A DNA stretch of 64,000 nucleotides from an uncultured Candidatus Berkelbacteria bacterium (GCA_963698075.1 OY969116.1:862131-926130); one strand, 5' to 3'. Counted from the first letter of the stretch, positions 1-64,000 are shown. A program made the numbers and translations. Notes: a model not told the origin generated them from the letters alone.

Positions 1-1310
1 GCAAAGAGTCACTCAAAGTTGCCGAAAAAGCGGTTGAGGCCCCGGTTAAAAAAGCCGAAGAATTTTGGCATAAGCTCGGACCGGGACTAACCACCGGCGC
101 GGCTGATGATGATCCCTCTGGGGTGGCGACTTATTCCCAGCAGGGCGCTAAATACGGCTTTCAATTATTATGGCTGGCGCCGCTAACTTTTCCCTTGATG
201 GCTGTTGTTCAAGAAATCTGCGCCCGTATCGGCCTGGCCACCGGTCGGGGTTTGGCCGCCAATATCAAAAATCATTTTCCCCGCTGGGTTTTATTTACCA
301 CTGCCGGTCTTCTATTGGTCGCCAATTCCTTTAACATCGGCGCTGATTTAGGTGGTATGGCCAAGGCAACCCAACTTCTTGCCCCGGCAATTCCGTTTTG
401 GCTTTTGATTTTCGGCTTCGTCGTTTTAAGCGGCTTAATGCAGATTTTTATTTCTTACACCAAATATGCTCGCTATTTAAAATATCTGGCTTTAACTTTG
501 ATTGTCTACATTATCACTGCCTTTACCCTCAAGGGCTTTCCGTGGCTTGAGGTTTTCAAACACGCTTTTTCGCCCACGCTTAATTTTAGCAAAGAACAAT
601 TTATTTTAATCACCGGGATTTTAGGGACGACGATCTCGCCATATTTGTTTTTTTGGGAGACTTCTCAAGAAGTTGAGGAACGCATCGCGAATGGCAAAAC
701 CACTATTCATGAACGTCAAGATGTTGCAAGAACCGAGATTCGCAAGATGCGCACTGATGTTTGGACAGGAATGTTTTTTTCCAATTTAGTAATGTTTTTT
801 ATTGTCGCTGTCTGCGGGGCAACTTTGTTTGCTCACGGGATAACTAATATCAACAGTGCTGCTGATGCGGCAGCGGCTCTTAAACCCTTGGCGGGCAATT
901 TTTCCTCCTTGCTTTTTGCCTTGGGCATTATAACCACCGGACTTTTAGGCATCCCGGTTTTGGCCGGCAGCGCTTCTTACGCGATTTCGGAAAGTTTGGG
1001 TTGGCGAGAAGGCTTAAATCTTCGTCTTCGCCAAGCCGCCTATTTTTACGGCATGATTATTTTGGCCATGCTTATCGGTTTGTTTATTAATTTTGTGGGC
1101 CTCGATCCAATTAAAGCCCTAATTTACGCCGCCGTGATCAATGGTTTGGTCGCGCCGGTGATTATGATTCTCATTATGCTTCTTTCCGGCAGACACGAGA
1201 TCATGAATCATTGGGTTAACGGTCCCTGGACAAAAACCATCGGCTGGCTGGCCACAGCTTTCATGATTATTACTGGTTTAATTACGATTTATTCAATTTT
1301 CGGGGAATAA
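1..1310 (+). CDS. mntH: Nramp-family divalent metal (Mn2+/Fe2+) transporter. The 5' end lies upstream of the window.
   Basis: The reading frame is open from nt 3. It carries the Nramp signature GPG-x-DDP (EFWHKLGPGLTTGAADDDPSG) and is polytopic. The ORF track begins at an internal GTG. Confidence 0.78.
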   Translation, partial: KESLKVAEKAVEAPVKKAEEFWHKLGPGLTTGAADDDPSGVATYSQQGAKYGFQLLWLAPLTFPLMAVVQEICARIGLATGRGLAANIKNHFPRWVLFTTAGLLLVANSFNIGADLGGMAKATQLLAPAIPFWLLIFGFVVLSGLMQIFISYTKYARYLKYLALTLIVYIITAFTLKGFPWLEVFKHAFSPTLNFSKEQFILITGILGTTISPYLFFWETSQEVEERIANGKTTIHERQDVARTEIRKMRTDVWTGMFFSNLVMFFIVAVCGATLFAHGITNINSAADAAAALKPLAGNFSSLLFALGIITTGLLGIPVLAGSASYAISESLGWREGLNLRLRQAAYFYGMIILAMLIGLFINFVGLDPIKALIYAAVINGLVAPVIMILIMLLSGRHEIMNHWVNGPWTKTIGWLATAFMIITGLITIYSIFGE

Positions 1311-1311
1311 A

Positions 1312-1968
1312 ATGGGCATATTGTATATTGTGGGTACCCCCATCGGCAATTTGGAAGATATTACTTTAAGGGCTTTACGAATTTTAAAAGAAGTTGATTT
1401 AATTGCCTGTGAGGATACTCGCCGGACAAGCATTTTGTTAGAGCATTATAATATCCGTCAGCCGATGGTTTCTTTTCATCAACATTCAAAACTGCAAAAA
1501 ATTGACTATCTTGTGGATAAACTAAAATCGGGCCAAAATATTGCTATAGTCACGGATGCCGGCACCCCCGGTATTTCTGATCCTGGTGGCGTCTTGATAG
1601 CCGAGGCGATAAAGCATAAGATAGAAATAGAGCCAATTCCCGGCCCGTCGGCTCTGACAACGATGTTGTCGATTGCTGGAATTGGAGCCGAGAAATTTTT
1701 GTTTTTAGGCTATTTTCCCAAGAAAAAAGGCCGCCAAACACTTTTGAAAAATTTAAAAAAATTTCCCTTTCTGATCGTCTTTTTTGAATCGCCGTACAGA
1801 ATTCAGCGGACCCTCGAAGATATCCAAAAATATTTAGATAATCCCGAAGTAATTATTGGCCGCGAATTAACCAAAAAATTCGAAGAAATTTTACGCGGAA
1901 AAATTTCCGAAGTTTTACCGAAAATCCGACCTCAAGGTGAATTCGTAATAATTATCAACCATGAATAA
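1312..1968 (+). CDS. rsmI: 16S rRNA (cytidine1402-2'-O)-methyltransferase, tetrapyrrole methylase fold
   Basis: N-terminus ILYIVGTPIGNLEDIT ... ACEDTRRT ... DAGTPGISDPG is typical of RsmI. Confidence 0.85.
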   Translation: MGILYIVGTPIGNLEDITLRALRILKEVDLIACEDTRRTSILLEHYNIRQPMVSFHQHSKLQKIDYLVDKLKSGQNIAIVTDAGTPGISDPGGVLIAEAIKHKIEIEPIPGPSALTTMLSIAGIGAEKFLFLGYFPKKKGRQTLLKNLKKFPFLIVFFESPYRIQRTLEDIQKYLDNPEVIIGRELTKKFEEILRGKISEVLPKIRPQGEFVIIINHE

Positions 1969-3373
1969 CGAATCAAAATCAAAAGCTGATGTTTTTTTTG
2001 TCACCACCGCCATTGATTACGCCAGTGATCTTCCCCACGTCGGTCATGCCCAAGAAAAAATTGCCGCCGATATTTTGGCACGCTATTGGCGCCGCCGCGG
2101 CCGCGAAGTTTTCTTTCTGACGGGCACCGATGAACATGGCCTCAAAGTTTTTCAAGCTGCCCAAAAAAAAGGTCAAGAGCCAAAACAGTTTGTCGATGAT
2201 ATTGCCTTAAAATATCAAGCCACTTGGTCAGCCCTTGAAATCAAATACGATAATTTTCTGCGCACCACTGATCCGGAACATGAAAAATATGTCCAAGAAT
2301 TTGTCCAAAAACTCTATGAACTTGGCGAGGTCTACAAAGATCGCTACCAGGGACTTTACTGCGTTGGTTGTGAGGAATATAAAGTTAAAAGTGAATTATT
2401 GCCTGGAAATCTTTGCCCGACTCACAAAACTCCTTGCCAAGCAGTTTTCGAAGATGTCTATTTTTTCCGGCTTTCTAAATACAAACAACAAATTTTAGAC
2501 ATTATTAAACAAAAGAAAATTATCATCGAGCCCGAAACGCGGAGAAATGAGATCATTAGTTTCTTGACCAAAGAGCCCTTGCAAGATTTAGCGATTTCTC
2601 GTTCCAAAGTCAGCTGGGGAATTCCCATTCCCTGGGATACAACGCAGACCATTTATGTTTGGGTTGATGCCCTCTTAAATTACCTCACTGGTTCCCGTGG
2701 TAATTGGCCGCCGTCATTGCATATAATCGGCAAAGATATTTTTCGTTTCCACTGTATCATCTGGCCGGCGATGCTCTTGGCCGTCGGTTTAGAACTGCCG
2801 CGCAAAATTTTTATCCATGGTTTTTTATCCGTTGATGGTGAACGGATTTCTAAAACTCGTGGCAATGTGATTGATCCCTTACAAATTGCCAAAATTTATG
2901 GCGTTGATCCCCTACGCTATTTTTTGTTTCGCGAAACGCCCTTTTTTCAAGACGGTGACTTTTCTGTTGACCGTTTTGAGAGGCGATACAAAGCCGATCT
3001 GGCCAACGACCTAGGTAATTTAATCCAAAGAGTTTTAATTTTAGCCAGTCAAAATAAAATTAACTGGCAATATCGGACCATTACCAAGCCCTTTCATCAG
3101 ATCGATCAAGCCATCGAGGATTTAAAATTCGATCGAGCCTTGGAATTGATTTGGGACATCATTACTGAGGCCAACAAACGGATTGATGCTGAAAAACCCT
3201 GGGAATTGGCCAAAACCAACCCAAAAAGATTGACAGAAATTATCAGTCAACTATTGCAGGCGCTTTCTCAAATCGCTTACGAACTTGAACCATTTATGCC
3301 GGAGACCGCTTGGTCAATTATCGAGCAGCTTAAAAGCCTCAAACCCTATGTCCTTTTTCCGAGAAAGAAATAA
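1961..3373 (+). CDS. metG: Methionyl-tRNA synthetase (short class I form)
   Basis: HIGH-type motif (PHVGHA), KMSKS-type motif (RISKTRG) and zinc-knuckle cysteines. Overlaps the rsmI stop. Confidence 0.9.
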   Translation: MNNESKSKADVFFVTTAIDYASDLPHVGHAQEKIAADILARYWRRRGREVFFLTGTDEHGLKVFQAAQKKGQEPKQFVDDIALKYQATWSALEIKYDNFLRTTDPEHEKYVQEFVQKLYELGEVYKDRYQGLYCVGCEEYKVKSELLPGNLCPTHKTPCQAVFEDVYFFRLSKYKQQILDIIKQKKIIIEPETRRNEIISFLTKEPLQDLAISRSKVSWGIPIPWDTTQTIYVWVDALLNYLTGSRGNWPPSLHIIGKDIFRFHCIIWPAMLLAVGLELPRKIFIHGFLSVDGERISKTRGNVIDPLQIAKIYGVDPLRYFLFRETPFFQDGDFSVDRFERRYKADLANDLGNLIQRVLILASQNKINWQYRTITKPFHQIDQAIEDLKFDRALELIWDIITEANKRIDAEKPWELAKTNPKRLTEIISQLLQALSQIAYELEPFMPETAWSIIEQLKSLKPYVLFPRKK

Positions 3374-3384
3374 AGGAGGATTTT

Positions 3385-4224
3385 TTGTTCCCATTTATTG
3401 CCACTGTCACGCAGGCCGCCGGCATCATTGTTGATAAAATAATTTTGACTCGCCGGAGGATGGAGCTTCACGTTTACATCCCGGTTCTTTTTTTATTTCT
3501 GTTTTTACTCACTGGCATTTTGATGCCGTTTTTTGGCAACATTAGTTTAGACATTTTCCGGCCTTACTATTTAATAATCTTCTTGGCCATGATAATCTGC
3601 GCCTTGATTTGGAACGTTTTTTACTACAAAGGTGCCCAGGCGGAAAAAGTTCATGAATTTGAACTCATCATTATGTTCCAGCCATTGCTAACGATTCTTT
3701 TGGCGGCGATATTGATTGAAAAAAATACCAATATTCACCTCCTCATCGCCTCGGTCCTGGCATCCTTGGCGCTGATTTTTTCTCATCTTAAAAGAAATCA
3801 CTTTGAAATTTCCGCCGCCGGCAAGGGTCTCATTTTGGCGGTCGTTTTTATATCTGTGGAGATCATTTTACAAAAGATAATGCTTGAAGTTTTATCGCCA
3901 GTGGCTTTGTATTTTATCCGCACCGGGATTATTTTTCTCTTTTTCATGTTTTTTTATCGGCCGCATATTAGACAAGTAGCCAATACCAATGCCTTGCTGA
4001 TTTTGACGACTTCGGCTTTGGGCGTTGCTCAGATGGTAACCAAATTTTACGGCTTTGAGGTTTACGGGGTGATTTACACTTCTTTAATTTTGATTTTATC
4101 GCCAATTTTGGTCTATATTATCTCGACGATCGCCTTACACGAGCACGTCAAAGCAAGAACAATAATCTCTGGCTTAGTGATTTTAGGTTGTATCATTTAC
4201 GCGACGGTTTTTAATTTAAGATAG
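3385..4224 (+). CDS. Polytopic membrane protein, possibly a DMT/EamA-like transporter
   Basis: About 8-10 hydrophobic helices. TTG start, 5 nt after an AAGGAGG RBS. Confidence 0.45.
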   Translation: MFPFIATVTQAAGIIVDKIILTRRRMELHVYIPVLFLFLFLLTGILMPFFGNISLDIFRPYYLIIFLAMIICALIWNVFYYKGAQAEKVHEFELIIMFQPLLTILLAAILIEKNTNIHLLIASVLASLALIFSHLKRNHFEISAAGKGLILAVVFISVEIILQKIMLEVLSPVALYFIRTGIIFLFFMFFYRPHIRQVANTNALLILTTSALGVAQMVTKFYGFEVYGVIYTSLILILSPILVYIISTIALHEHVKARTIISGLVILGCIIYATVFNLR

Positions 4225-4247
4225 AATAAGATCTAAATAATACGAAA

Positions 4248-4285
4248 CAAGCCGCAGGCTCGAAAGCCTGCGGCTTGTATGTTGT
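4248..4285 (+). terminator. Rho-independent terminator after the membrane-protein gene
   Basis: GCCGCAGGC-TCGAAA-GCCTGCGGC hairpin followed by a T-rich run. Confidence 0.6.
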
Positions 4286-4306
4286 GTTCTCCACCTCCTT
4301 GTGGGG

Positions 4307-5632
4307 TTAGTGCGAAGGCCACTTCTCGCGGAATGGATCATCCGACTCCCGCGAGTAGAAGATGGCGATCAAGTGGCGCTGCCAGCCCATGAAGCCATCG
4401 GGCCAGAGGCGGACGTCCAGCCAATCCCCGGGCGGGACACGCATCGGCGGGTCAGCCCAGGGGTTTTCCCATACCCACATCTGCCAGGCATCGTGGATGT
4501 CAGTGCCAACGTTGTCCTTGCTCTGGCCGTTGAGTTCCCAGGAAGGCAGAGCCACCTTGAACTCCCGGGTCGGCAGGAAGGCTGGGGCGCGACTGCCATA
4601 GAAGCCCTCGCGGACCGTCAGGACAACCTCAGCTTTCGGATCGCGGGGAGACCTCTCGGCTTTGAAGACTTGGTATTCTCCTTGCCGAAGGTCCCAGGCC
4701 GAGTGAACGTAGTTCGGGCTGAATTTGGCCATGCCAGTGGTCAAGAGCCAAGCCGTCACCACCAGGCCGACTGCGAGATAGAAGCCGAAGGTCAGTCTCG
4801 CTATTTCCGGCTCGTTGTCCCAACCGCGCCGCAAGGGACCCTCGTGACTGACGCGAGCCAGCTCATAGCTCTTGATAAAGAGCGCCGAGCAGGCAAAGAC
4901 GAGCCAGTCGCGAGAGAGCAGAGAGTAGACCAGGGGCAGGGCCCAGTAGCGCTGTTCCATCAGTTCATAGAGGTGGCCGTGCCACTTAGGGTCGAGCTTC
5001 TTCTCCAAGATGTCTTCCGCCAGTCCGAGGACCAGGAGGACGACCAGAAAGGCGCCCGCCACGTTGAGCTCCAGGTTGATGGTCAGGAATGTCGGATTGG
5101 AGACGAAACTCTCGTGAAAGAACCTCGTCCCCACGAAGCTTCGGACCGCGAAGATGATCGGATCGGCCAAGAGAACCGCCAAAAGCATTACTGTCGTGGC
5201 CAAACCATGATTGGCGCGATCGATCTTTTCACGGACAAAGCAGACAAGGACCAAGGGAATCAGGAAATTGGCTAGGGGCGGGTGGGCGAGAATCAGGAGT
5301 GACCCCGCCAAACCCCAACCAATACCCAGGACCTTATCCGCTCCTCGAAACCAGACCAGACCGTGGTCGACGAGCAGGTCAGCCACCTTCATCTGGATAC
5401 CAAAGAAGATGGCCAGGGCTCCGACAAGGAGCTCTGTTGGGAGATACACCCCGGCGGCAACGATAGCGATGAGGCTAACCGTACCAGCCAGGGACACCAG
5501 GGCGGCAATATAGGTCAGACGACTGCGGGCCCAGGTGACGATTACAGGGACCCCGAGAACTCGGGGCATAGTCAGGCTTCTGACTGTCACAGCGTGCCTC
5601 CATATAGAGTCAAGGTTCAAATCGTCCCACAT
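4307..5632 (-). CDS. GC-rich (about 58%) polytopic membrane protein with a roughly 150-aa soluble C-terminal domain. Family not recognised.
   Basis: 441-aa ORF with coherent transmembrane-helix periodicity. A near-consensus promoter lies on the minus strand just upstream. Composition is foreign to the surrounding genome. Confidence 0.6.
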   Translation of the reverse strand: MWDDLNLDSIWRHAVTVRSLTMPRVLGVPVIVTWARSRLTYIAALVSLAGTVSLIAIVAAGVYLPTELLVGALAIFFGIQMKVADLLVDHGLVWFRGADKVLGIGWGLAGSLLILAHPPLANFLIPLVLVCFVREKIDRANHGLATTVMLLAVLLADPIIFAVRSFVGTRFFHESFVSNPTFLTINLELNVAGAFLVVLLVLGLAEDILEKKLDPKWHGHLYELMEQRYWALPLVYSLLSRDWLVFACSALFIKSYELARVSHEGPLRRGWDNEPEIARLTFGFYLAVGLVVTAWLLTTGMAKFSPNYVHSAWDLRQGEYQVFKAERSPRDPKAEVVLTVREGFYGSRAPAFLPTREFKVALPSWELNGQSKDNVGTDIHDAWQMWVWENPWADPPMRVPPGDWLDVRLWPDGFMGWQRHLIAIFYSRESDDPFREKWPSH

Positions 5633-5646
5633 CTTTGGGACATTGA

Positions 5647-5675
5647 ATTATAGCATAAATTGGTCTAAAAGTCAA
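5647..5675 (-). promoter_or_regulatory. Sigma70-like promoter for the minus-strand membrane-protein gene (TTGACT-17-TATAAT)
   Basis: The reverse complement reads TTGACTtttagaccaatttatgcTATAAT, about 15 nt before the ATG at 5632. Confidence 0.5.
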
Positions 5676-5773
5676 GGAATTATAATGCAGTTATAAGGAG
5701 GGATTTTGATAATATGTAAAGTTGACCTTTACTATGCTCAACACCCGCAAATCATAAAAATGTCAATACTCAC

Positions 5774-5809
5774 TTGACAAAATTGGTAAAATGTGATAAG
5801 ATGTGATAA
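5774..5809 (+). promoter_or_regulatory. Divergent sigma70-like promoter (TTGACA-17-TAAGAT) with tandem TGTGATAA repeats across the -10 element, followed by a roughly 75-nt hairpin-containing leader
   Basis: TTGACAaaattggtaaaatgtgaTAAGAT. TGTGATAA sits at 5792-5799 and 5802-5809. The leader hairpin is CAAGCG-GAAAT-CGCTTG. Confidence 0.45.
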
Positions 5810-5880
5810 TCAAGCGGAAATCGCTTGAGCGAACCTGAAAACCCGCCGGTGACGAGGTAAATCGGGAAAGGAGGTGGCCC

Positions 5881-6486
5881 ATGCGCTACCTGACAATAGC
5901 TGTACTGGTGGTAATGCTGTTGGGACTAGGGGTTTCTGCTTACGGGGCCCACGTTGAGGAGCCGGGGATCAACCTCGAGTCCATCAACATGGGTTACGAC
6001 CTCGAGCGGACCCCCGATGGCAACGAGACGACCGAGCTCTACGAGAACTTCTCGTTCTGCAACAAGACCTACCGAGTGAAGCTCTCTCTCGAGTACTACT
6101 CTGACGGCTATGACCGCTACACCCTCTACGCCGGCAAGAAGTCCAGCCCGACTATGGGACTGGTGCGCTGGGATGATTCGAGCCGCTTGTGGCTCGGCTT
6201 CAACCACGTCCAGCCCATCTCGAACGAGCTGACACTGATCCTCCGGCCGCTCAAAGGAGTCAATGCCGCCACCTGCGACCGCGCCTATCTCATCGCTGAC
6301 TACCAACTGAAGGGCGAACATCTGGGCGCGATGTTCCTGGCGGTGGGAATCGAGGGCGACGGCAAGGCCGAGGACTACTACCTTGGTCCCACTTACCGCG
6401 ATGGCGGCTGGAGCTTCTGGGCCGCCACACACCTGACCAAGGACGATTTCTACCTGGACGCCAGCTACTCAATGGCGTTCAAGTAG
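5881..6486 (+). CDS. Secreted protein (signal peptide MRYLTIAVLVVMLLGLGVSAYGA) with beta-rich composition resembling small outer-membrane proteins
   Basis: Signal peptide plus an AGGAGG RBS. GC-rich island gene. The beta-barrel-like assignment is inference only. Confidence 0.55.
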   Translation: MRYLTIAVLVVMLLGLGVSAYGAHVEEPGINLESINMGYDLERTPDGNETTELYENFSFCNKTYRVKLSLEYYSDGYDRYTLYAGKKSSPTMGLVRWDDSSRLWLGFNHVQPISNELTLILRPLKGVNAATCDRAYLIADYQLKGEHLGAMFLAVGIEGDGKAEDYYLGPTYRDGGWSFWAATHLTKDDFYLDASYSMAFK

Positions 6487-6510
6487 GGAACAACGACTAC
6501 TGACTAACCA

Positions 6511-6545
6511 GGCAGACAGGCCTTCAAACTTATGGCCTGTCTGCC
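6511..6545 (+). terminator. Perfect 12-bp stem terminator
   Basis: GGCAGACAGGCC-ttcaaacttat-GGCCTGTCTGCC followed by a T-containing tail. Confidence 0.6.
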
Positions 6546-6619
6546 CCATTTTCTCCTGATTCCATCCACGGATGGAGCCAGAAGACGAATGTTGTACCTG
6601 AACAAGGGAGGAAACCCTG

Positions 6620-6763
6620 ATGAACAAGAGATGGTTTCTTTTCGCCGTTATCGTCCTTGCCTGGATCGCTGTGGTTGTTCTGGGAGTCAAGTATGCCCCG
6701 TGGTCGTTTGCCGTCCTCGGCGGCGTCATCATTCTGCTCCTTATCTTGCGGAAGAGGAGGTGA
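6620..6763 (+). CDS. 47-aa hydrophobic membrane peptide (MNKRWFLFAVIVLAWIAVVVLGVKYAPWSFAVLGGVIILLLILRKRR)
   Basis: Below the ORF-track length cut-off. GGGAGG RBS 7 nt upstream. Its TGA stop is embedded in the RBS of the next gene. The overlapping long-frame ORF translates to low-complexity R/P/C-rich sequence. Confidence 0.5.
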   Translation: MNKRWFLFAVIVLAWIAVVVLGVKYAPWSFAVLGGVIILLLILRKRR

Positions 6764-6768
6764 GAGAG

Positions 6769-7413
6769 ATGATGAAGGTGCTTAGAGGCTCCTGCCTGGT
6801 TGCGAGTGGTGTGAAGGAGAAGGACGTATCCTCCTTCCTTCAGGAATGGGACCGGATAGGAGCGGAGCTGATTTCGGTAGAGAGGATCGGTATCAAGAAT
6901 CCTCGCTATCGAGTTCTCGCCTTCCTGCCCAATGGTCCGAATCATTCCTTTGCTTTGACCCACAGGTCTAAAGGCATTCACAATCTGGGTCAGGGCAAAC
7001 TGGTACGGAGCGAGACCGGAGCTGTCCGATTTGTGCCGGAGCGTTACCCCTACCCGGATGCCCAAGAAGTGGGTCGAGGTAGTAGCCGCGTAACCATGTA
7101 CACGGACCGGGACGGAAGGGTACACTTCAGCTTTCTGATACCCGGAACCCACTACCGGTGGCTGCACTGGATCGTTGATCCTCGCCGGATCGGTCCAAGG
7201 CAATTGCCATCAGGCTTTTTCCAATGGGACTTGGGTCTGCCCCAGCGCCGCCTGAGTTTACTAGCAAGTTTCGCGCTGGCGAAAGACACTGGGCGATGCC
7301 TGACACTCCACATGCAAGACCAGTACGGCAAGTTTCACGAACTTCCGGTCGAGAAGCGCGTGGCCAAGGTTCTTGGCCTTCGCGACTGTAACCCTCGAGA
7401 CGAGAGGAGGTGA
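6769..7413 (+). CDS. Hypothetical protein (214 aa) of the GC-rich island
   Basis: ATG preceded by GAGGAGGTGAGAGAG. Same frame as track ORF 6532..7413, but the region upstream of 6769 looks non-protein-like. Confidence 0.5.
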   Translation: MMKVLRGSCLVASGVKEKDVSSFLQEWDRIGAELISVERIGIKNPRYRVLAFLPNGPNHSFALTHRSKGIHNLGQGKLVRSETGAVRFVPERYPYPDAQEVGRGSSRVTMYTDRDGRVHFSFLIPGTHYRWLHWIVDPRRIGPRQLPSGFFQWDLGLPQRRLSLLASFALAKDTGRCLTLHMQDQYGKFHELPVEKRVAKVLGLRDCNPRDERR

Positions 7414-7418
7414 GAGAG

Positions 7419-8254
7419 ATGCCTGAAGAGCCCAAAGATGGCTATCTGATCATCATCAGAGATGTTCGGCACGGCGATTTCGTGGGACTGCTACCGCCTT
7501 TGTTCTGGCAGCCAACGGCGCGACTGTCCACTTGGTCTCCCGAAACGAAGAGAAGCTCGAGCAGATCGCCCACAACATCACCCATTTCCTTGAGGAGGTT
7601 AGGGAGGATCAAGTCGAACGATCAGCCGTTGATCTCCTTGATGAAGGGCAAGTCACGGCGTTCGTGGACGCCTTGCCGAAGAATAAACGGATCTTTTGGG
7701 TCCAGTCTATCGGCATGGGAGCCGGTACTTACCAACTCAAGGACGGAAACCCGTATCTGCATCTTGAGGATATCCCGCTCGAACTTCTTGAGCTGGAATC
7801 GACAACTGTGCTCAAGGGAACACACATCCTGATGCAGAAGCTACTGCCGGTGTTCCGTGAGCAAAACAGTCGCTTCGGAATGGAGACGAGGATTGCGATT
7901 GTAAGTTCGATGTCAGCAATCCGAGGCTATAACGTTGGCGGGACGCACTGCGCAGCCAAGGGCGCGATCAGCCGATATGCCAATGCGGCCATGCTCGACC
8001 TCTGGAAAGAAGGTATCTATGTTACCGATGTCAGGCCAGGGGTCGTCGACACCGGGATGTACGATTCGGAAGCGGTTCAGAAGGCAGTCCTGGAGATCGA
8101 CGCGGAATATGGCAATCACTGGAACCAGAATGGCCTTCAACTTGCTCCGCCCATCGCCGTCGGTTACGCCATCGCTACTGCGCTGACCATTCCCGCTCAC
8201 ATTCCGTCAATCAATCTGGTGGCGCAGGGGCAATTCCCGAACGAGGGGTCGTAA
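7419..8254 (+). pseudogene. SDR-family (short-chain dehydrogenase-like) gene that is frameshifted and degenerate
   Basis: The frame from 7419 encodes ...LIIIRDVRHGDFVG and then needs a -1 shift near 7486 to continue TATAFVLAANGATVHLVSRNEEKLEQ..., which aligns in register with the Rossmann region. The catalytic region reads SSMS...GGTHCAAK, with His in place of the Tyr of the YxxxK motif. Confidence 0.45.
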
Positions 8255-8278
8255 ATCTTAACAACTGAAAATAGATCT

Positions 8279-8317
8279 TGCCCACCATAGCCTTGGGCGA
8301 AGGTGGGCCTTTTCTCC
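8279..8317 (+). terminator. Terminator after the SDR-like gene
   Basis: GCCCACC-atagccttgggcgaa-GGTGGGC followed by CTTTTCTCC. Confidence 0.55.
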
Positions 8318-8377
8318 CGGTTATCACTACGGTGGTAGCTGGAAGCAAAAGAATGTACCTGAACAAAGGAGAAGCCA

Positions 8378-8572
8378 ATGTCGGCTTTTATGGGTGTGAA
8401 GACCAAAGACCGGAAGGGCAGGATCGTCGGGATCACACCGGATGTCGCCGCCGGTATGATATTTCTAGGGCTGGTAACGCCGGTCAGAAAGGTCGTTCAA
8501 CCAACACGCAAGAAGAAGGGGAAGGTTGCCTCGAAGCGCAAATCGGCGAAACGAAAAAAGAAGAGAGGCTGA
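8378..8572 (+). CDS. 64-aa protein with a strongly basic Lys/Arg-rich tail
   Basis: AAGGAGA RBS. Preceded by the same ATGTACCTGAACAAAGGAG module that precedes the 47-aa peptide gene. Confidence 0.45.
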   Translation: MSAFMGVKTKDRKGRIVGITPDVAAGMIFLGLVTPVRKVVQPTRKKKGKVASKRKSAKRKKKRG

Positions 8573-8573
8573 G

Positions 8574-8909
8574 ATGGCCAAGATTCTGCTCTGGAACGTG
8601 CCGGCGGAGTATCGCGAGGCGCTGGAGAAGGAAGCGAGACCGTTCGTGTCGCTGGAGACCCTAGAGATCGATGAAGTTTCTGGTATCAACCAATTTGATA
8701 GCAAAGCCAAAGAGGCGACTGCTTCAGGTAGGCCCTATACTCAGATTGTAGCTTTCTTGACAGAGCCATCCAATGTGAGAGGGGCGCTGGATGTACTCAG
8801 TGAGCGGGCGACAGAAATGCAGGCTGATGTAATCTGTCACACAGCGCTGGTTCCGCTTCCCGACTTCATCGCCGAGTTCAATCGCACCTTCCACCCGTGG
8901 AAGAAGTGA
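8574..8909 (+). CDS. Hypothetical protein (112 aa, MAKILLWNVPAEYREALEKE...)
   Basis: The ATG lies 1 nt after the upstream TGA, giving translational coupling. A terminator follows at 8938-8972. Confidence 0.5.
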   Translation: MAKILLWNVPAEYREALEKEARPFVSLETLEIDEVSGINQFDSKAKEATASGRPYTQIVAFLTEPSNVRGALDVLSERATEMQADVICHTALVPLPDFIAEFNRTFHPWKK

Positions 8910-8937
8910 CATCACATCATCAAGGAGAGGGATCAAT

Positions 8938-56192: not shown

Positions 56193-56560
56193 AAGGCGTG
56201 GCAGAAAAGGTTTTATCCGGCCAAAAATCCGTCGAAATAAGACTCAGCCAGAATCAAATTGCCCCCTATTTAGAAGTTCAAAAAAAAGACGAGATTCTCT
56301 TGAAAATTTCCGGCGGCAAAATAATTGGCAAAGCAATCGTGGATAATTGTTTATATTACGAAATTTCTAATCAAATAACAGTTAATATGCTTCGAGAAAA
56401 TTATCGAGAAGAGGCCGCCATGGATGAAAAATTCTGGGATACTCATAGGAATGCTCGCTTTGCCACGGTAATCTTTCTTAAAAAACCAACCAAATTTTTA
56501 ATGCCCGTGGTCTTCAAGAAACGTGATCGAAGGCCATGGGTCGTGATGGAGGAGAAATGA
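56162..56560 (+). CDS. ASCH/PUA-like domain protein
   Basis: Short beta-barrel pattern (KSVEIRLS ... ILLKISGGKIIGKAIV). Confidence 0.4.
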   Translation: MARRHLAIFLKGVAEKVLSGQKSVEIRLSQNQIAPYLEVQKKDEILLKISGGKIIGKAIVDNCLYYEISNQITVNMLRENYREEAAMDEKFWDTHRNARFATVIFLKKPTKFLMPVVFKKRDRRPWVVMEEK

Positions 56561-57585
56561 CACGCATGCAAATAGCTATTAATGGTTTTGGTCGAATTGG
56601 CCGAACTTTTTTTCGCGCCGCTTATGCGTTGCATCCGAAAGAATTTAACATCGTTGCTGTTAATGATTTGGGTGATATTGAAACACTGGCGCATTTATTA
56701 AAATATGATTCTTCCTACGGCGAGTTTGCCGGTCAAGTCAAAGTTAAGGGTGATAAATTAATGGTCGATGACAAGGAAATTACGGTCTTATCAGAAAAAG
56801 AGCCTGCCAATTTACCTTGGAAAGATTTAGGGGTGGATCTGGTCATCGAGTCCACCGGCGTCTTTACCGATCGCGAAGCCGCCTCTGCCCACGTCAAAGC
56901 TGGCGCCAAAAATGTGATTATCACCGCACCAGCCGAAGGTGAGAAACCAATCAAAACGATTATTTTGGGCGTCAATGAAGAAGAGTTTAATCCAAGTGAG
57001 GATATTTTATCGATGGCCTCCTGCACGACGAATGCCCTGGCGCCAGTGGCTGATGTTTTGCATAAAAATTTCGGCGTTCTAAAATCATCAATGACGACAA
57101 TCCATTCTTATACGATGGACCAACGTTTACAAGATGATGCTCACAAAGATCTTCGTCGTGCCCGGGCAGCTAGCTTATCAATCATTCCCACCACCACTGG
57201 AGCAACGATCGCTGCCACCGCCGTTATTCCTGACTTAAAAAACAAAATGAATGGGATTTCTTATCGAGTACCGACAGCCACCGTCTCTTTACTGGAATTC
57301 GTTGCTTTAGTCTCAAAGAACGTGACTGTCGAAGAGGTTAACGCGGCTTACAAGAATGCCGCCGATGATCCCAAAACCCAAGGAGCGATTGCCGTTTCAA
57401 ATAAACCCTTGGTTAGCGCTGATTTTAAAGGTGATCCTCACGGGGCCATCATCGACCTCTTGTCAACTCAGGTAATTGATGGTAATCTTGTAAGAGTAGT
57501 GGCTTGGTATGATAATGAATTGGGGTATTCCTACCGTTTAGCAGAATTTTGCAAATATATAGAAGAAAAAACCATAAGGAGTTAA
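56557..57585 (+). CDS. gap: Glyceraldehyde-3-phosphate dehydrogenase (type I)
   Basis: INGFGRIGR, and SCTTNALAP carrying the catalytic Cys. Confidence 0.9.
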   Translation: MTRMQIAINGFGRIGRTFFRAAYALHPKEFNIVAVNDLGDIETLAHLLKYDSSYGEFAGQVKVKGDKLMVDDKEITVLSEKEPANLPWKDLGVDLVIESTGVFTDREAASAHVKAGAKNVIITAPAEGEKPIKTIILGVNEEEFNPSEDILSMASCTTNALAPVADVLHKNFGVLKSSMTTIHSYTMDQRLQDDAHKDLRRARAASLSIIPTTTGATIAATAVIPDLKNKMNGISYRVPTATVSLLEFVALVSKNVTVEEVNAAYKNAADDPKTQGAIAVSNKPLVSADFKGDPHGAIIDLLSTQVIDGNLVRVVAWYDNELGYSYRLAEFCKYIEEKTIRS

Positions 57586-58002
57586 ATGCGTAAAGATTGG
57601 ATTTTAATTGGTATTATTGGGCTGATTTTAATTGTCGGTCTGGGATTAATTGGCTATCTTAAATTATCCAAAAAACAAGTCATTGCCAATCCCGAACCCT
57701 CTGCCTCTGGCCAAGCAATTGCCGGTGCTGTCACAGCCGAATATTTTAGCGAAGATGCCAAAGTTATGTATTTTTATTCTGATTTCTGTCATTGGTGTCA
57801 GAAAGAAATGTCAGACGTTTTGCCTGATTTAGGCAAGGAAGGTTATCGTCTAAAACCAATGGACGTCGCGACCAACCCAAATTTAGGGAACCAATATAAT
57901 ATCACTGGTACGCCCACGTTTGTGGCCGCCAATGGTGATCGATTAGTTGGTTATCAAGAAGCCGCCGCTTTAAAAGCTTTTCTTGATCAACATAAAGAAT
58001 AA
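57586..58002 (+). CDS. Membrane-anchored thioredoxin-fold protein (CHWC active site)
   Basis: CxxC in a thioredoxin-fold context. N-terminal transmembrane helix. Confidence 0.6.
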   Translation: MRKDWILIGIIGLILIVGLGLIGYLKLSKKQVIANPEPSASGQAIAGAVTAEYFSEDAKVMYFYSDFCHWCQKEMSDVLPDLGKEGYRLKPMDVATNPNLGNQYNITGTPTFVAANGDRLVGYQEAAALKAFLDQHKE

Positions 58003-58031
58003 AATTTTTTAAAAAATAAACCGACAAAAAA

Positions 58032-58232
58032 ATGCAGAAACTTAAAAAGGGCCAGCGAATTACAATTGGATTGATAATTTTGGCTATGGGCACTCTTATT
58101 TTGGGGGCTGATCGTCTTTTTGTTTCCGCCGACAACGCCAATTACGGTCAATCAATGACAGTTTTAACCATTGTTGCTCTTTTTTTCTTTTTGATTGCCG
58201 CCATTTGGCTTTTTAGAACAACATTCGATTAG
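58032..58232 (+). CDS. Small membrane protein (66 aa)
   Basis: Two predicted transmembrane helices. Confidence 0.4.
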   Translation: MQKLKKGQRITIGLIILAMGTLILGADRLFVSADNANYGQSMTVLTIVALFFFLIAAIWLFRTTFD

Positions 58233-58249
58233 TTCGATAAAGAGGGTTA

Positions 58250-59662
58250 ATGGCAGTGGAAATCAATGAAAAAAACTTTGAAATAAAACCTCGTCAAAAT
58301 GTTCTCCAGAGTCAAAAATGTCAAAATTTTCGCGATTTTGAAGACGTAGCGCTTTCTCGCGATGAATCAAAATGTATTGGCTGCGGCCTTTGCCGAACCG
58401 CATGTTTGGAATACAACAATTTGGGTATTCCAGTGGAGACAAAAGTTGGTGATTGTACCTATTTCCGTCCAGATGGGAAATTAAAGGTTTCCGAAAGCAA
58501 TTGTACTCGTTGCGGCCAGTGTGTCATGGCTTGTCCAACAGGGACCTTGCAAGAAAAAGATAATATTGAGGATGTAAAAAAAGCCCTCGCTGATCCTGAT
58601 AAAATTGTTGTGGCCCAAACCGCACCTTCTTCAAGAGTCAGTCTGGCCGAAAGTTTTGGCGGCGCGCCGGGAGAGATTTTGGAAGGACAGATGGTAGCTG
58701 CTTTAAAAAAACTCGGCTTTGATTACGTTTTTGATGTTAATTTGGGAGCAGATTTTACCACTTTTGAGGAGGCATATGATCTCAAAGACCGAATTGAGGA
58801 GGGGACGATTCCTCTTTTTACTTCTTGTTGCCCAGCACGGGTAAAATATATTGAAGATTTCCACAAAGACTTGATTGGCAATATTACTTCAGTCCGTTCG
58901 CCTCAGCAATGCCTGGCAGTTTTAATTAACACTTATTTTGCTCAAAAACTTAAATTAGATTATAAAAAAATTATTGTGGTCTCGATTATGCCTTGTATCG
59001 CCAAAAAATTTGAATCGCGGCGCGAAGGCGAAGATAAATCCGGCTACTGGGATGTTGATTGGGTTTTAACCACGCGCGAATTTATTAAAATGGTTAAAGA
59101 AGCGAATATCGATTTAAAAAATATTGAGCCGTCTAAATTTGATTCGCCGTTGGGTGAGGCATCTGGCGCCGGGGCAATCTACGGCGCCGCCGGCGGGGTG
59201 ATGGAATCAGCCATCCGCACTTTTGCCGACATTTTTCATAATGAAAAAATTGATAAAATCGATTACCAAGAATTCCGCGGGATGGAAGGAATTAAAAAAG
59301 CGACAATCAATATCGGCGGCAAAGATATTAAAATTGCTGTTGCTACAGGACTAGCCAACGCGGAAAAAATAATTGCGGAAATAAAACATGGTGAAGTTTA
59401 TCATTACATTGAAGTCATGGCTTGCCCCGGTGGTTGTGTTGGCGGCGGCGGCCAGCCCAAACCGCAAACCCTAGAAATTATTAATAAAAGACGAGAAGCT
59501 TTATATGAAATTGATAAAAAATTATCCATCCGCAAAGCCCACGAAAATCCGGTGCTCCAACAAGTTTATAAAGAATTTTTAGGCTGTCCCGGCTCGGAAT
59601 TAGCCCAAAAATATTTACATACCAATTACAATGTGAGGCAAGCGAGGATTTGTAAAATTTAG
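58250..59662 (+). CDS. hydA: [FeFe]-hydrogenase catalytic subunit (HydA-like) with N-terminal 4Fe-4S ferredoxin domains
   Basis: H-cluster motifs L1 TSCCPAR, L2 MPCIAKKFE and L3 MACPGGCVGGGGQP. Two CxxCxxCxxxCP ferredoxin motifs. Confidence 0.8.
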   Translation: MAVEINEKNFEIKPRQNVLQSQKCQNFRDFEDVALSRDESKCIGCGLCRTACLEYNNLGIPVETKVGDCTYFRPDGKLKVSESNCTRCGQCVMACPTGTLQEKDNIEDVKKALADPDKIVVAQTAPSSRVSLAESFGGAPGEILEGQMVAALKKLGFDYVFDVNLGADFTTFEEAYDLKDRIEEGTIPLFTSCCPARVKYIEDFHKDLIGNITSVRSPQQCLAVLINTYFAQKLKLDYKKIIVVSIMPCIAKKFESRREGEDKSGYWDVDWVLTTREFIKMVKEANIDLKNIEPSKFDSPLGEASGAGAIYGAAGGVMESAIRTFADIFHNEKIDKIDYQEFRGMEGIKKATINIGGKDIKIAVATGLANAEKIIAEIKHGEVYHYIEVMACPGGCVGGGGQPKPQTLEIINKRREALYEIDKKLSIRKAHENPVLQQVYKEFLGCPGSELAQKYLHTNYNVRQARICKI

Positions 59663-59668
59663 GAAAAT

Positions 59669-60193
59669 ATGGCCAAAGTAAAAACTCAAGTTATAGCCAA
59701 AGTCAAATGGGAATCAATTGTGTGGTTTGTAGGATTAATGGCGGTCGTGGCGGTTTTGCCGCACTATGTCCACAATCAATTCATCACCGGGCCGATTGTT
59801 AATGCGGTTTTGTTTATCGCAGTAGTAACATTGGGTGTCGGCAACGCAATATTAATTGGTCTAATTCCATCAGTCGTCGCTTTAATATCGGGATTACTGC
59901 CAGTGCCGCTGGCGCCAATGGTGCCGTTTATAATGATTTCTAACGCAATAATGATTTTAACATTCTCGTATTTTAGAAAAGTAAATTTCTGGGGCGGGGT
60001 TATAGGCGGAACTTTATTTAAGTATGCATTTTTGTATTTAACCTCGACAATCGTGGTTGGTTTAATATCGAATCATAATATTGGCTTGAAAGCCGCGGCT
60101 ACCATGATGGCTTGGCCACAAATCGTGACTGCGATCGCTGGTGGCGTGATTGCGTTTGGGATTTTGAAAATAACTTCTAGGGATTTGAAATAA
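59669..60193 (+). CDS. Polytopic membrane protein, possibly an ECF-transporter S-component-like protein
   Basis: Five to six transmembrane helices. Low-confidence family call. Confidence 0.4.
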   Translation: MAKVKTQVIAKVKWESIVWFVGLMAVVAVLPHYVHNQFITGPIVNAVLFIAVVTLGVGNAILIGLIPSVVALISGLLPVPLAPMVPFIMISNAIMILTFSYFRKVNFWGGVIGGTLFKYAFLYLTSTIVVGLISNHNIGLKAAATMMAWPQIVTAIAGGVIAFGILKITSRDLK

Positions 60194-60214
60194 AAATATC
60201 ACGGAGGAGGCAAT

Positions 60215-60571
60215 ATGCTCGAAGATTTGGTTTTTGTTTCAATTTTCTCATTACTTTTTGGGGTACCAGCTTTAGTAATTTTTTATCTTATTGCCCGAAG
60301 TAGTCCTGGTAATCAAAATATTAATTCTTTTAGTATCCAGGGAATGTTCAAGTTGCTTGCGGAAATAGTCGGCCTCTACTTACTTTTTTGTTCAATTTAT
60401 TTAGCGGTTGTAACAGTTCTTGCATTACCTGGCATTCAAGGCACAGAGGGATTTTCTGCTGTTTTTCTGCTTGGTGGAGATGTAGTAGCATTTATTGTTA
60501 CTATATTAATGACGGTGATATCATTTAGATTAAAAATTGGGCCCAAAGATACCAACATAAACCAAGGATAA
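60215..60571 (+). CDS. Small membrane protein (118 aa)
   Basis: GGAGG RBS. Three to four transmembrane helices. Confidence 0.4.
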   Translation: MLEDLVFVSIFSLLFGVPALVIFYLIARSSPGNQNINSFSIQGMFKLLAEIVGLYLLFCSIYLAVVTVLALPGIQGTEGFSAVFLLGGDVVAFIVTILMTVISFRLKIGPKDTNINQG

Positions 60572-60594
60572 TGACTTTGGAGTTCTAAGACTCT

Positions 60595-61770
60595 ATGAAA
60601 AAAATTCAAGAAGCACAAATTGAAGGAAGGAATATTTTAGTGCGCATTGACACCGATGTGCCGATGGCAAAAGAATGGACTGATGGTCAGACGCGGGAGA
60701 TTTTAGATGACGAGCGCCTGCGCGCCTCTATTCCTACTATCAGATATTTGTTAGAAAAAGACGCCAAAAAAATTGCGATTATGGGCCACGTTGGTCAACC
60801 GAAAGGCGTTGATCTAAATTTTAGTTTGTGGCCAATAGCTAATCAATTATCAGTGCTCTTGGGCTATAAAACCGAATTTTTCAAGCCACAGCTAAACTAT
60901 TGTCTCGATGAAAAAATCATCATTTATGAAAACATGCGTTTTGATCCACGAGAAGAAAAAAACGATCCTGGTCTCGCCCAAGACTTAGCCAAAAATCAAG
61001 ATTTTTTTGTTCAAGATGCTTTTGCCAGTTGTCATCGCGCTCACGCCTCAACCGTTGGAGTGGCAAAATTATTGCCTTCTTACGCCGGGATGGCCGTTCA
61101 AAAAGAAGTGGAAAATCTTTCTCAAGTTATTGCCAGTCCCGCCGAAGGTTGCACCATCATTATTGGTGGTAAAAAAACCGAAGATAAATTACCAATGATT
61201 GCCAACCTTTTAGGCAAGGCGGAAAATTTTTTGATCGGCGGAGTGGTTGCCAATACTTTTTTAGCGGCCAAGGGCTATAATTTGGGAAAATCGCTGATTG
61301 AGACGGAAGTTTTATCTAAGGCAAGAGAAATTTTACAAAAATTTGCCAGCAACCCTTCAAAAAAATTATTAATGCCGGTTGATTTAATATTTTCCAGGTC
61401 GAAAGATATGCCCGTAGATTTAAGACATGAAAATATTGAAGATCTAAATAATATCGATGATTTTTTTGCCGTCGATATCGGGGCGGAGACTACCGCCAAT
61501 TTTCTCGTCACTATCAAAAATTCAAGGACGATTTTTTGGAACGGCAATTTAGGCGTTTCTGAAGTTGAAGAATTTCGGAAAAATACTTGGAAAATTGCCG
61601 AGGCGATTGCCAATTCTCGAGCTCAAAAATACGCTGGCGGCGGTGATACCAGCTCTTTTATTCGCCAAGTGGGCTTGGAAAATAATTTCGATTTTATCTC
61701 CAACGGCGGCGGTGCCACCCTCGAATTTTTGGCCGGTAAACCCCTGCCGGGACTGGAAGTTTTGGAATAA
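60595..61770 (+). CDS. pgk: Phosphoglycerate kinase
   Basis: Canonical PGK N-terminal and C-terminal domain motifs. Confidence 0.9.
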   Translation: MKKIQEAQIEGRNILVRIDTDVPMAKEWTDGQTREILDDERLRASIPTIRYLLEKDAKKIAIMGHVGQPKGVDLNFSLWPIANQLSVLLGYKTEFFKPQLNYCLDEKIIIYENMRFDPREEKNDPGLAQDLAKNQDFFVQDAFASCHRAHASTVGVAKLLPSYAGMAVQKEVENLSQVIASPAEGCTIIIGGKKTEDKLPMIANLLGKAENFLIGGVVANTFLAAKGYNLGKSLIETEVLSKAREILQKFASNPSKKLLMPVDLIFSRSKDMPVDLRHENIEDLNNIDDFFAVDIGAETTANFLVTIKNSRTIFWNGNLGVSEVEEFRKNTWKIAEAIANSRAQKYAGGGDTSSFIRQVGLENNFDFISNGGGATLEFLAGKPLPGLEVLE

Positions 61771-61953
61771 TCGCTCGCCAGTATCCGTCAAAAGATGCCG
61801 GCACTACTTCGACTCCAGCGCGTCGAAGGTGCCTGCTATCTCGGCCAAAAAGTCGCCTGCGGCGACACCATGCTTTTTGGCCTGCGATGGCCACTTTTGA
61901 GGACACTTGGCTTCGCTTTACATAAGAAAAAAAATTGTATATAATATAGTTCT

Positions 61954-63153: not shown

Positions 63154-63340
63154 TATCGTTCGCCCCAGCCACGCCAAAACATACCGGGCCTAAAATTTCC
63201 CCAGCGAGGAAATTTGACCCTACGCGCTCGGCCTCGCTCTTGACCGTGCAGCTCGGCCTGCGCGAGTTAGTTTTGGGTGGCATGCGGCTCACTTGACAAA
63301 TCAAGAAATGTAAACTATACTTAACATCGAAAAGGAAACA

Positions 63341-63940
63341 ATGAAAGAAGACACAACTAATCAGTATTTAGTGCCGATGGTGCTCGAAAAAAGCCAGTTT
63401 GGCGAACGGGCGTACGATATTTATTCGCGATTGCTTAAAGACCGAATCATTTTTATCGGCGGGCCGATTGATGATGCGGTGGCTAATCTCGTGATGGCGC
63501 AGTTACTTTTCTTGGATGCTGAGGATCCGAAAAAAGATATTTCGATCTATATTAATTCGCCGGGTGGGGTAGTCACCGCCGGAATGGCAATTTATGATAC
63601 AATTCAATATGTTAAAGCTGATGTCTCGACGATTTGTATTGGTCAAGCCGCTTCCGCCGCCGCCATATTATTAACCGCCGGCACTAAAGGCAAACGCTAC
63701 GGCTTGCCTCAGTCTCGAGTGATGATTCATCAAGTGATGGGCGGCGCTGAAGGTCAGGCAACGGACGTTGAAATCCAAACCCGCGAGATTTTGCGAATTA
63801 AAAAAGCCATCAATGAAATCTTGGCCAAACATACCGGTAAAACACTGACAACAATCGAAAAAGACACTGACCGCGATTTCTATATGACGGCCGCTGAAGC
63901 GAAAAAATACGGAATCATCGATCAGGTTATTAAACAGTAG
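63341..63940 (+). CDS. clpP: ATP-dependent Clp protease proteolytic subunit
   Basis: Catalytic Ser in [11 protein letters not shown], plus the His and Asp positions. A TTGACA-17-TATACT promoter lies at about 63292-63320. Confidence 0.95.
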
Positions 63941-63945
63941 AAGCC

Positions 63946-64000
63946 AACCCCGTACAATTCCTTCCTGACTTATTGAATTACATTCAATCACGCAGGAGCG
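63946..64000 (+). repeat. Structured repeat R, copy 3 (partial; the window ends inside it), directly after clpP
   Basis: Near-identical to copy 1 except for compensatory changes in the inner hairpin (TTGAAT-TAC-ATTCAA). Confidence 0.55.

Follow-up and report, generated by a model that had tools for sequence, protein, structure and literature searches.

Phage morons are independent units of promoter, open reading frame (ORF) and terminator that are added between phage genes (PMC3594210). Integron cassettes, including those of clusters of attC sites lacking integron-integrases (CALINs), are mobile single-gene units of about 0.5-1 kb with mostly orphan cargo, set serially, each with an attC site at its 3' end (an imperfect palindrome of 57-141 nt with RYYYAAC...GTTRRRY ends). 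The 64,000-nt stretch analysed here, referred to as the window, comes from an uncultured Candidatus Berkelbacteria bacterium (GCA_963698075.1 OY969116.1:862131-926130) and carries GC-rich single-gene cassettes and one larger island among genes that are nearly all housekeeping. The inserts are genuine, present in some relatives and absent from others, and subject to lateral exchange, and several of them share an architecture and junction modules. At conserved intergenic sites (landing pads), cassettes have been acquired, lost or exchanged for others, and they move between related lineages. They are probably best described as moron-like expression cassettes that related lineages exchange at these pads. 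By analogy, phage morons would be their closest functional counterpart and integron cassettes the closest organisational one. The segments considered are as follows.

4225-8993: island 1, a 4.7-kb multi-gene insert between EamA and a TrmB-like gene, GC 0.52-0.61
11835-12143, minus strand: cassette D, 102 aa, several CxxC motifs, GC 0.50 (marginal)
20246-20912, plus strand: cassette A, with 5' end, ORF, hairpin and 3' end
23050-23552, minus strand: cassette B, bounded by the direct repeat CGCACTCTGCC
24111-24563, plus strand: gene G, a 150-aa orphan
32728-33408, minus strand: Ku-like gene (Pfam Ku, E 5.5e-5, just below the curated cut-off)
38962-39270, plus strand: gene E, a 102-aa orphan with CxxC motifs
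40479-41239, minus strand: cassette C
45970-46560, plus strand: RNA-like unit, with promoter-like TTGACA-17-TACATT, an ORF, structured GC-rich sequence and a terminal hairpin
51722-52159, minus strand: gene F, a 145-aa orphan between uvrA and uvrC

Like morons, these units have a single small ORF with its own promoter and terminator, a composition unlike that of their surroundings, a position exactly between conserved genes, and optional, horizontal occurrence. The promoter and terminator around a single ORF are predicted from sequence; the deviating composition is found in A, B, C and island 1 and not in D, E, F and G, and optional occurrence among relatives is seen at the same junction. Unlike morons, which reside in phages or prophages, the cassettes lie in a housekeeping chromosome, in landing pads built of modules and with direct repeats, and one type keeps its ends while swapping its ORF. 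With integron cassettes and CALINs they have in common the size, the orphan cargo and serial arrangement, a short sequence recurring after each gene, and near-identical copies in divergent genomes. They differ in having their own promoters and lying on both strands, where integron ORFs are promoterless and in one orientation, and in occupying several small sites, not one array. Inspection, with no dedicated attC model run, revealed no attC-type site: the recurring motif of about 25 nt is not palindromic, and the hairpin ATCTAACGGCTCA-loop-TGAGCCGTTAAA has AAC/GTT ends, yet is a perfect 9-bp stem of 26 nt. A Pfam scan of the window ORFs detected no IntI tyrosine recombinase with attI, although one could lie elsewhere in the genome.

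The flexible genomic islands of streamlined bacteria are comparable in that content varies at fixed places (EamA|TatD, a small transmembrane gene|nuclease, FolD|MnmA), but the units in the window are far smaller, are GC-rich in an AT-rich genome, and have neither a tRNA neighbour nor an integrase; the hallmarks of a classical integrative island (a tRNA or transfer-messenger RNA (tmRNA) site, an integrase and att repeats) are absent from the window. Free-standing homing endonuclease genes are likewise small and optional, with their own promoters, the same intergenic site and an identity above that of their flanks, but no nuclease motif or fold was detected in the cargo here, and it has no HNH, GIY-YIG or LAGLIDADG match in Pfam. 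The ends of A, B, C and D have no terminal inverted repeats, and so do not show the combination of these with a short target-site duplication that marks insertion sequences and miniature inverted-repeat transposable elements.

Segments of elevated GC

Overall GC is 43.1% in the window and 42% in its backbone. Windows of 200 nt have a median of 42.5% (standard deviation 6.7), and the per-gene medians are 0.42 for GC and 0.41 for GC at the third codon position (GC3; GC1 and GC2 for the others). The original prediction listed ten segments of elevated GC. They were assessed by their 200-nt peaks and, at the gene level, by robust z-scores for GC and GC3 over the 77 plausible genes, 68 of which are on the plus strand. 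Five segments, four of them coding, are strong outliers, one is marginal and four are not outliers. The strong ones are:

4197-8993: coding, 200-nt peak 0.66
20221-20979: coding, 200-nt peak 0.615
22957-23565: coding, 200-nt peak 0.685
40540-41203: coding, 200-nt peak 0.59
45658-46569: holds the non-coding RNA-like region, 200-nt peak 0.605

A z-score above 3 in both GC and GC3 is reached by five island-1 genes and by genes A, B and C, with two further island-1 genes on the borderline (GC3 z 2.9). GC3 in island 1, A, B and C is 0.62-0.81 against the median of 0.41, and the outlier genes show the GC1-high, GC2-low, GC3-high signature of true coding sequence. Gene D is marginal (z 2.5 for GC, 1.5 for GC3), and part of the rise at 11.7-12.2 kb is due to a conserved backbone gene at 11514-11693. 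The segments at 24.1-24.6 kb (gene G; z 1.2 for GC, -0.6 for GC3), 32.7-33.6 kb (Ku-like; 1.2 and 0.6), 38.9-39.3 kb (gene E; 1.7 and 1.0) and 51.7-52.2 kb (gene F; 1.6 and 0.4) are not compositional inserts, and are at most older or native accessory genes; every one of them contains an orphan or accessory gene with a putative promoter of its own. About 30 additional 200-nt segments exceed 0.50 GC (peaks 0.505-0.585). Local peaks at a proline-rich gene (27.4-27.9 kb) and a small acidic gene (45686-45919; GC1 0.77, GC3 a normal 0.41) are explained by amino-acid composition.

The description of the segments as single small genes fits eight of the nine coding ones, the exception being 4.3-9.0 kb with seven genes, while the proposed preference for the minus strand is weak. 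That strand carries three of the eight strict outlier genes (Fisher p=0.047) and about half of the ten segments: D, B, the Ku-like gene, C, F and one island-1 gene are on the minus strand, and A, G, E, the RNA-like region and six island-1 genes on the plus strand. ARAGORN found no tRNA or tmRNA and Rfam had no match anywhere in the window; as the blocks are also protein-coding, an rRNA or tRNA origin was rejected.

Single-gene cassettes

In each of the strong cassettes A, B and C, a promoter-like region rich in AT is combined with an ORF and a hairpin that are both GC-rich. The single-gene units are 0.5-0.7 kb in size, and direct repeats bracket A (20 nt), B (11 nt) and C (36 nt). Their parts are:

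20223-20242 and 20895-20914: direct repeat AGCCGATTTGACAGCGGGGA of cassette A, 20 nt, exact
20209 and 20912: nested exact repeat GGATAATTAAAT at cassette A, 12 nt
20246-20302: conserved 5' end of cassette A, 57 nt, starting GGGCTTGCTCTGCAGGCCATTTTATGGTATAA, with a hairpin and promoter-like TTGCTC-17-TATAAC (read by eye)
20325-20819, plus strand: ORF of cassette A, 164 aa, GC3 0.65
20836-20863: perfect 14-bp hairpin of cassette A
20835-20912: conserved 3' end of cassette A
23050-23060 and 23542-23552: direct repeat CGCACTCTGCC of cassette B, 11 nt, exact
23127-23477, minus strand: ORF of cassette B, a 116-aa zinc-ribbon protein, GC 0.63
23535-23506 and 23109-23089: promoter-like site and terminator of cassette B
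40479-40514 and 41204-41239: direct repeats of cassette C, 36 nt, 72% identity
40610-40969, minus strand: ORF of cassette C, 119 aa, CxxC motifs
41149-41121: promoter-like site of cassette C
40576-40608: hairpin of cassette C, 15 bp, perfect

Cassette A has a counterpart in a related contig, L054, in which the 57-nt 5' end is 98% identical (L054 14134-14190) and the 80-nt 3' end 89% identical (14579-14657), with unrelated ORFs between these shared ends (164 aa in the window, 118 aa in L054). Homology of cassette B to the contig L106 ends exactly after the 11-nt repeat. For cassette C, each repeat copy forms a hairpin, and compensatory changes distinguish the two.

Occurrence in related genomes

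Syntenic contigs of sibling genomes (L051-L057) were retrieved by a metagenome scan with IscS, and their proteins are mostly about 50-90% identical to those of the window; no sibling sequence covers 32-64 kb. The comparison, which the original prediction had suggested, shows inserts absent or replaced at the same junctions. The largest such site is the FolD|MnmA hotspot (17556-24660), which measures 7.1 kb in the window, 4.2 kb in L054, 2.1 kb in L051 and 0 kb in L053, where the two genes are adjacent, and is filled by different genes in each genome; gene G is absent from L051, L053 and L054. Upstream of a PD-(D/E)XK nuclease gene, the window has gene D, L053 a GNAT-type gene, and L054 and L052 one or two other GC-rich cassettes. 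The same gaps hold different genes in L051, L052, L054, L106 and L107. Four GC-rich cassettes occur in 21 kb of L054 and none in L053, and about 44% of the first 32 kb of the window is absent in one sibling.

Identity within cassettes exceeds that of their surroundings. One sibling cassette, termed Y, is 95.9% identical between L052 and L054 while the nuclease gene touching it is 68.3% identical, and the high identity breaks off at the cassette ends and does not taper into the neighbouring genes. For cassette B the identity between L106 and L107 is 93.5%, with a backbone at 67-73%; the copy in the window is 80-84% identical to these two, with a backbone at 70-76%. Because of presence or absence at fixed junctions, identity above the backbone, conserved ends and direct repeats, the proposal of a family of very small insertion cassettes is supported for A, B and C. 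It extends to the sibling cassettes and probably to D and G, but the listed set as a whole is heterogeneous, with one 4.7-kb multi-gene island, one non-coding unit and four non-outliers. What the cassettes have in common is architecture and junction modules, not one end sequence.

The protein encoded by a further GC-rich cassette of L054 (473-886, GC3 0.79) begins with a hydrophobic helix of the prepilin type, and part of the cargo may have to do with the cell surface or with pili.

Island 1

The island at 4.2-9.0 kb and its right-hand neighbour comprise:

4307-5590, minus strand: membrane protein, 427-441 aa, GC3 0.74
5881-8909, plus strand: six genes (ORF calls), GC3 0.62-0.81, namely
5881-6486, plus strand: secreted protein, 201 aa
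6620-6763, plus strand: 47-aa transmembrane peptide
6769-7413, plus strand: ORF
7532-8254, plus strand: short-chain dehydrogenase, N-terminus not in frame
8378-8572 and 8574-8909, plus strand: two ORFs
8998-9792, plus strand: TrmB-like regulator (Pfam TrmB), native GC

In L053 and L054 the island is absent and EamA directly abuts TatD; the stretch 4.2-9.8 kb, island and TrmB-like gene together, is therefore an insertion relative to them (the TrmB-like gene is also missing there). A more distant contig, L115 (NCBI GCA_040961635.1), also carries an island at this site, likewise GC-rich and joined on the left in the same way, with partly different genes. Its island proteins are 50-55% identical to those of the window, and 50-52% where the six plus-strand genes are concerned, versus 77-87% for flanking and backbone proteins, and its copy of the TrmB-like gene is 87% identical. 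The flanks of island 1 have only a 9-mer in common, and no flanking repeats were found.

The membrane protein has no Pfam match and three database relatives only, itself and two at 55% identity. Among the six plus-strand genes, adh_short is the only Pfam match. The Rossmann N-terminus of this short-chain dehydrogenase lies in another frame (7410-7540), so the gene is frameshifted or truncated; since the independent contig L114 is identical there, this is not the error of a single assembler. Two of the genes share a leader, ...GAATGT(T)GTACCTGAACAARGGAGRAA (6560-6620 and 8307-8377), and this non-coding leader is 92% identical to L115 2397-2460 despite the protein identity of 50-55%.

Expression signals and junction modules

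Private promoters and terminators had been predicted for most of the segments, and are borne out as matches to consensus sequences:

F: 12/12 promoter (52216-52189) and terminator (51694-51672)
B: 9/12 promoter and terminator
G: 9/12 promoter with TG (24050-24078) and terminator (24545-24572)
C: 9/12 promoter with TG
E: 10/12 promoter (38819-38846)
RNA-like region: 10/12 promoter with TG
A and C: perfect terminal hairpins, 14 and 15 bp

Boundary sequences shared between segments, a further element of the original prediction, are confirmed. The motif AGCCGATTTGAC... occurs five times in the window, CTGCC[N]GGCGG four times (0.1 expected) and a 45-nt element twice, and modules recur in the siblings. 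The motif AGCCGATTTGACA.C.GG.GATTGG is usually found directly 3' of a stop codon. At accessory-gene junctions, AAGAAAGCGCCAAAGAA followed by a AACGGCTCA hairpin is a recurring module, as is TCAAAAAAATCACCC, and AGCCGATTTGACASCSGGSGATTGG is another motif among the cassette-end and junction sequences. The flanking repeats of the cassettes overlap short modules that are recurrent in this genome and its siblings. At the nuclease junction, three genomes agree in the order of the modules and differ in the points between them at which cassettes are inserted; the modules left of cassette D are:

11698-11746, plus strand: AGCCGATTTGACCCCCGGCGATTTGG, a G9 run and CTGCCGGCGG

The G9 run (11722-11730), placed between the two junction motifs, could be prone to slippage or sensitive to sequencing. 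As a sigma-70 promoter element the AGCCGATTTGACA motif was rejected, there being no -10 box at constant spacing. Searches of IMG/VR with the cassette-end and junction motifs gave either nothing or chance matches without further similarity.

The two copies of the 45-nt element (12226-12270 and 23922-23966) are 89% identical and contain the perfect palindrome ATTCTATAGAAT together with promoter-like hexamers on both strands. The element lies upstream of the orphan genes D and G and adjoins a membrane-anchored helix-turn-helix gene (23578-23898), and it may be an operator.

Cargo proteins

Most cargo proteins are orphans, with no significant match in Pfam, PHROGs or PADLOC; those with a family match are the truncated short-chain dehydrogenase of island 1 and the Ku-like protein. 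Pairs of CxxC motifs occur in B, C, D and E. Searches with tblastn of the cargo against all fetched loci found no paralogues and no sibling homologues, and there was no match among 50,697 phage genomes, IMG/VR and plasmids. PHROGs gave only three weak partial matches (E 6e-4 to 8e-3), all to families of unknown function.

An exhaustive search for the B family produced 45 clusters with conserved CPxCG...DDHGRFxC and IPPINRLH motifs; the family profile has no match in IMG/VR. The structure model of protein B (predicted local distance difference test score 94.9) has a zinc ribbon and a helical hairpin, without a significant match in PDB. Members of the family in other AT-rich genomes have a gene GC of 0.61 against 0.35-0.37 for their contigs, and again come with their own AT-rich promoter and terminator.

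Origin and mode of transfer

The density of inserts in the window had been put down to either mosaic mis-assembly or very small insertion cassettes. A second assembly of the same reads was available as Logan contigs of run ERR10755944, retrieved by exact-protein look-up:

3910-10567: contig L114, 100% identical, entire island 1 and both flanks
15239-25483: contig L171, 100% identical, cassettes A, B and G
36888-41235: contig L113, 100% identical, E and most of C (left side)
51224-61799: contig L172, 99.97% identical, F

They leave uncovered the junctions at 11.7-12.3, 32.7-33.6 and 45.9-46.6 kb and the right edge of C; across the covered junctions the four contigs are 99.97-100% identical to the window, and mis-assembly is excluded for these. 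Exact look-ups of the nuclease, ProRS and IscS proteins, directed at the other junctions, returned no record, probably owing to differences in the start codon called. Six of the eight contig ends lie inside backbone genes and not at insert edges, and one of the others, at 61799, is just past the PGK stop codon. The last, at 41235, lies in the right-hand repeat of cassette C. This end, and the sharp changes of composition at short repeats able to mislead an assembler, are what a chimera of GC-rich fragments from other organisms stitched into an AT-rich genome might leave; the stop in the repeat could also stem from a mixed population in which some members have the cassette and others lack it. 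The same architecture, with the same cassettes at the same loci, appears in contigs of other samples and assemblers (JGI, ENA, NCBI), and the inserts fall exactly between genes and have host-type promoters, so that a chimeric origin is scarcely credible. Native heterogeneity, in which amino-acid composition or expression level raises the GC and nothing is inserted, would account for the segments at 24.1, 32.7, 38.9 and 51.7 kb as well as for the proline-rich and acidic genes described above. It is a very improbable explanation of the set, given the GC3 of island 1, A, B and C and the absence or replacement of island 1, A and B in siblings.

The architecture fits the published definition of phage morons as independent transcription units spread horizontally (PMC3594210), and an ORF6N/KilAC-type gene and the PD-(D/E)XK nuclease adjoin two variable sites, as might be expected of morons proper or the remnants of a decayed prophage. 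However, the flanks are housekeeping genes (IscS, FolD, MnmA, L31, S2, UvrABC) without phage structural genes, and the phage databases returned no more than the weak partial matches given above, which makes a phage origin improbable. More serious as a rival, though still unlikely, is a site-specific recombinase acting in trans: encoded elsewhere in the genome, it would insert circular cassettes at the recurring junction motifs, in an integron-like or related manner, the repeats being duplicated att cores. Identical 20-nt and 11-nt repeats do bracket cassettes A and B, the identity of cassettes far exceeds that of the backbone, and the AGCCGATTTGACA motif follows the stop codons of successive accessory genes of the hotspot in an array-like manner, also in L054 and L051. 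Against this, the window has no integrase, the motif of about 25 nt lacks the imperfect palindrome of an attC site, each cassette comes with a promoter and either orientation occurs, the repeat sequences differ from one cassette to another, and insertion points in the landing pad vary between genomes.

The exchange of moron-like cassettes between related lineages at landing pads is the probable explanation. The window would hold a flexible compartment comprising the 4.7-kb island, at least three (probably five or six) single-gene cassettes and one structured-RNA unit. Each cassette would be its own transcription unit, with an AT-rich promoter of host type, a GC-rich ORF and a GC-rich terminator hairpin, and the landing pads would be a few intergenic sites built of short modules conserved in the lineage. 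Because the window is without a recombinase, a transposase or a tRNA, the mechanism of mobilisation can only be inferred: cassettes may enter by recombination at the conserved junction modules or short flanking repeats after DNA uptake, with no enzyme encoded by the cassette. A pilin-like gene and the Ku-like gene are both present in the window. The cargo, small zinc-ribbon, membrane and secreted orphans, would supply accessory functions from a GC-rich gene pool.

Several observations weigh against this explanation. The flanking repeats of A, B and C are unlike one another in sequence and in length, and no such repeats were detected at D, E, F, G and island 1. No recombinase or transposase was detected by Pfam among the ORFs scanned in the 64 kb, and promoter calls are consensus matches only about twice as numerous as in shuffled sequence. 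For C, E, F, the Ku-like gene and the RNA unit, the status as inserts is read from composition and architecture alone. Donor assignment by best matches, another check put forward with the original prediction, did not yield a GC-rich donor genome or a phage or plasmid relative; valid large-scale homology searches among the cargo cover B and the island-1 membrane protein. The GC of the cargo also remains high in several AT-rich hosts, which import followed by amelioration would not predict.

A literature search on GC-rich cassettes in Patescibacteria found nothing relevant, and it is tentatively possible, if doubtful, that the units belong to a distinct and previously undescribed class of miniature mobile expression cassettes. 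In such a class, a GC-rich ORF or structured RNA that can be exchanged would sit between two conserved ends, the 5' one carrying the promoter and the 3' one the terminator. Insertion would take place at short intergenic modules that are themselves conserved and would leave direct repeats behind, and the units would spread between diverged lineages with no enzyme encoded by the cassette. Functionally, the class would amount to integron-like gene capture that dispenses with attC and IntI and brings its own expression signals, and it would draw on a GC-rich gene pool kept against the AT bias of the host. The usual picture of streamlined, host-dependent bacteria is one of few genes and little change, yet GC-rich imported DNA makes up about 12% of this 64-kb housekeeping stretch, in units of the smallest self-sufficient kind (one gene plus its expression signals) that pass near-unchanged across lineages with about 70% core identity. 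Should the mechanism hold, it would explain how new small proteins are sampled, possibly with surface, host-interaction or conflict functions, and the 57-nt end and junction motifs would provide a handle for mining the cargo pool in metagenomes. For genome binning, sharp GC breaks in such genomes should not be removed as contamination.

Structured RNA candidate

Of the GC-rich segments, only 46.0-46.56 kb is rich in structure without a coding signal. Its fold z-score is -9.5, versus -2.0 and -3.9 for GC-rich coding controls, and it has no codon-position GC signal while the coding segments show codon periodicity. Its terminal hairpin is common to junction modules of the siblings, and there is no Rfam, phage or plasmid match. 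The single ORF of the unit is:

46082-46147, plus strand: hydrophobic ORF, 21 aa

By its predicted folding the region is a candidate novel structured RNA, and, speculatively, it may be linked to this small ORF as a toxic-peptide-like product.

Other genes and repeated elements

Translation and tRNA functions are represented in the window by MetRS, ProRS, GatCAB, MnmA, RF1, L31, L9, S2, EF-Ts and RRF, cofactor and one-carbon metabolism by IscS, NifU and FolD, DNA repair and ligation by LigA and UvrABC, glycolysis by TPI, FBA, GAPDH and PGK, and protein folding and turnover by trigger factor and ClpP. This content resembles that of a streamlined bacterium of the Patescibacteria (candidate phyla radiation) type. 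Among species-representative genomes, a search with IscS for a close relative gave a best identity of at most 49%. LigA (29727-31715) lies about 1 kb upstream of the Ku-like gene with one gene between them, and end-joining could play a part in how foreign DNA is captured. Pilin-like features mark the proline-rich gene at 27.4-27.9 kb.

A hairpin element of about 65 nt occurs in tandem upstream of uvrA (48645-48715 and 48763-48833), again after clpP (63941-64000, cut by the end of the window) and in the sibling L051 (1256-1298). Rfam has no match for it; its inner stem changes from UUGAAC/GUUCAA to CAGAAC/GUUCUG, a compensatory replacement, and the fold z-score is -3 to -4. Lastly, the protein of an Nramp-type transporter gene (123-1310) is 93% identical to its L054 counterpart while adjoining genes are at about 70%, which suggests that a backbone gene, too, has recently been exchanged.

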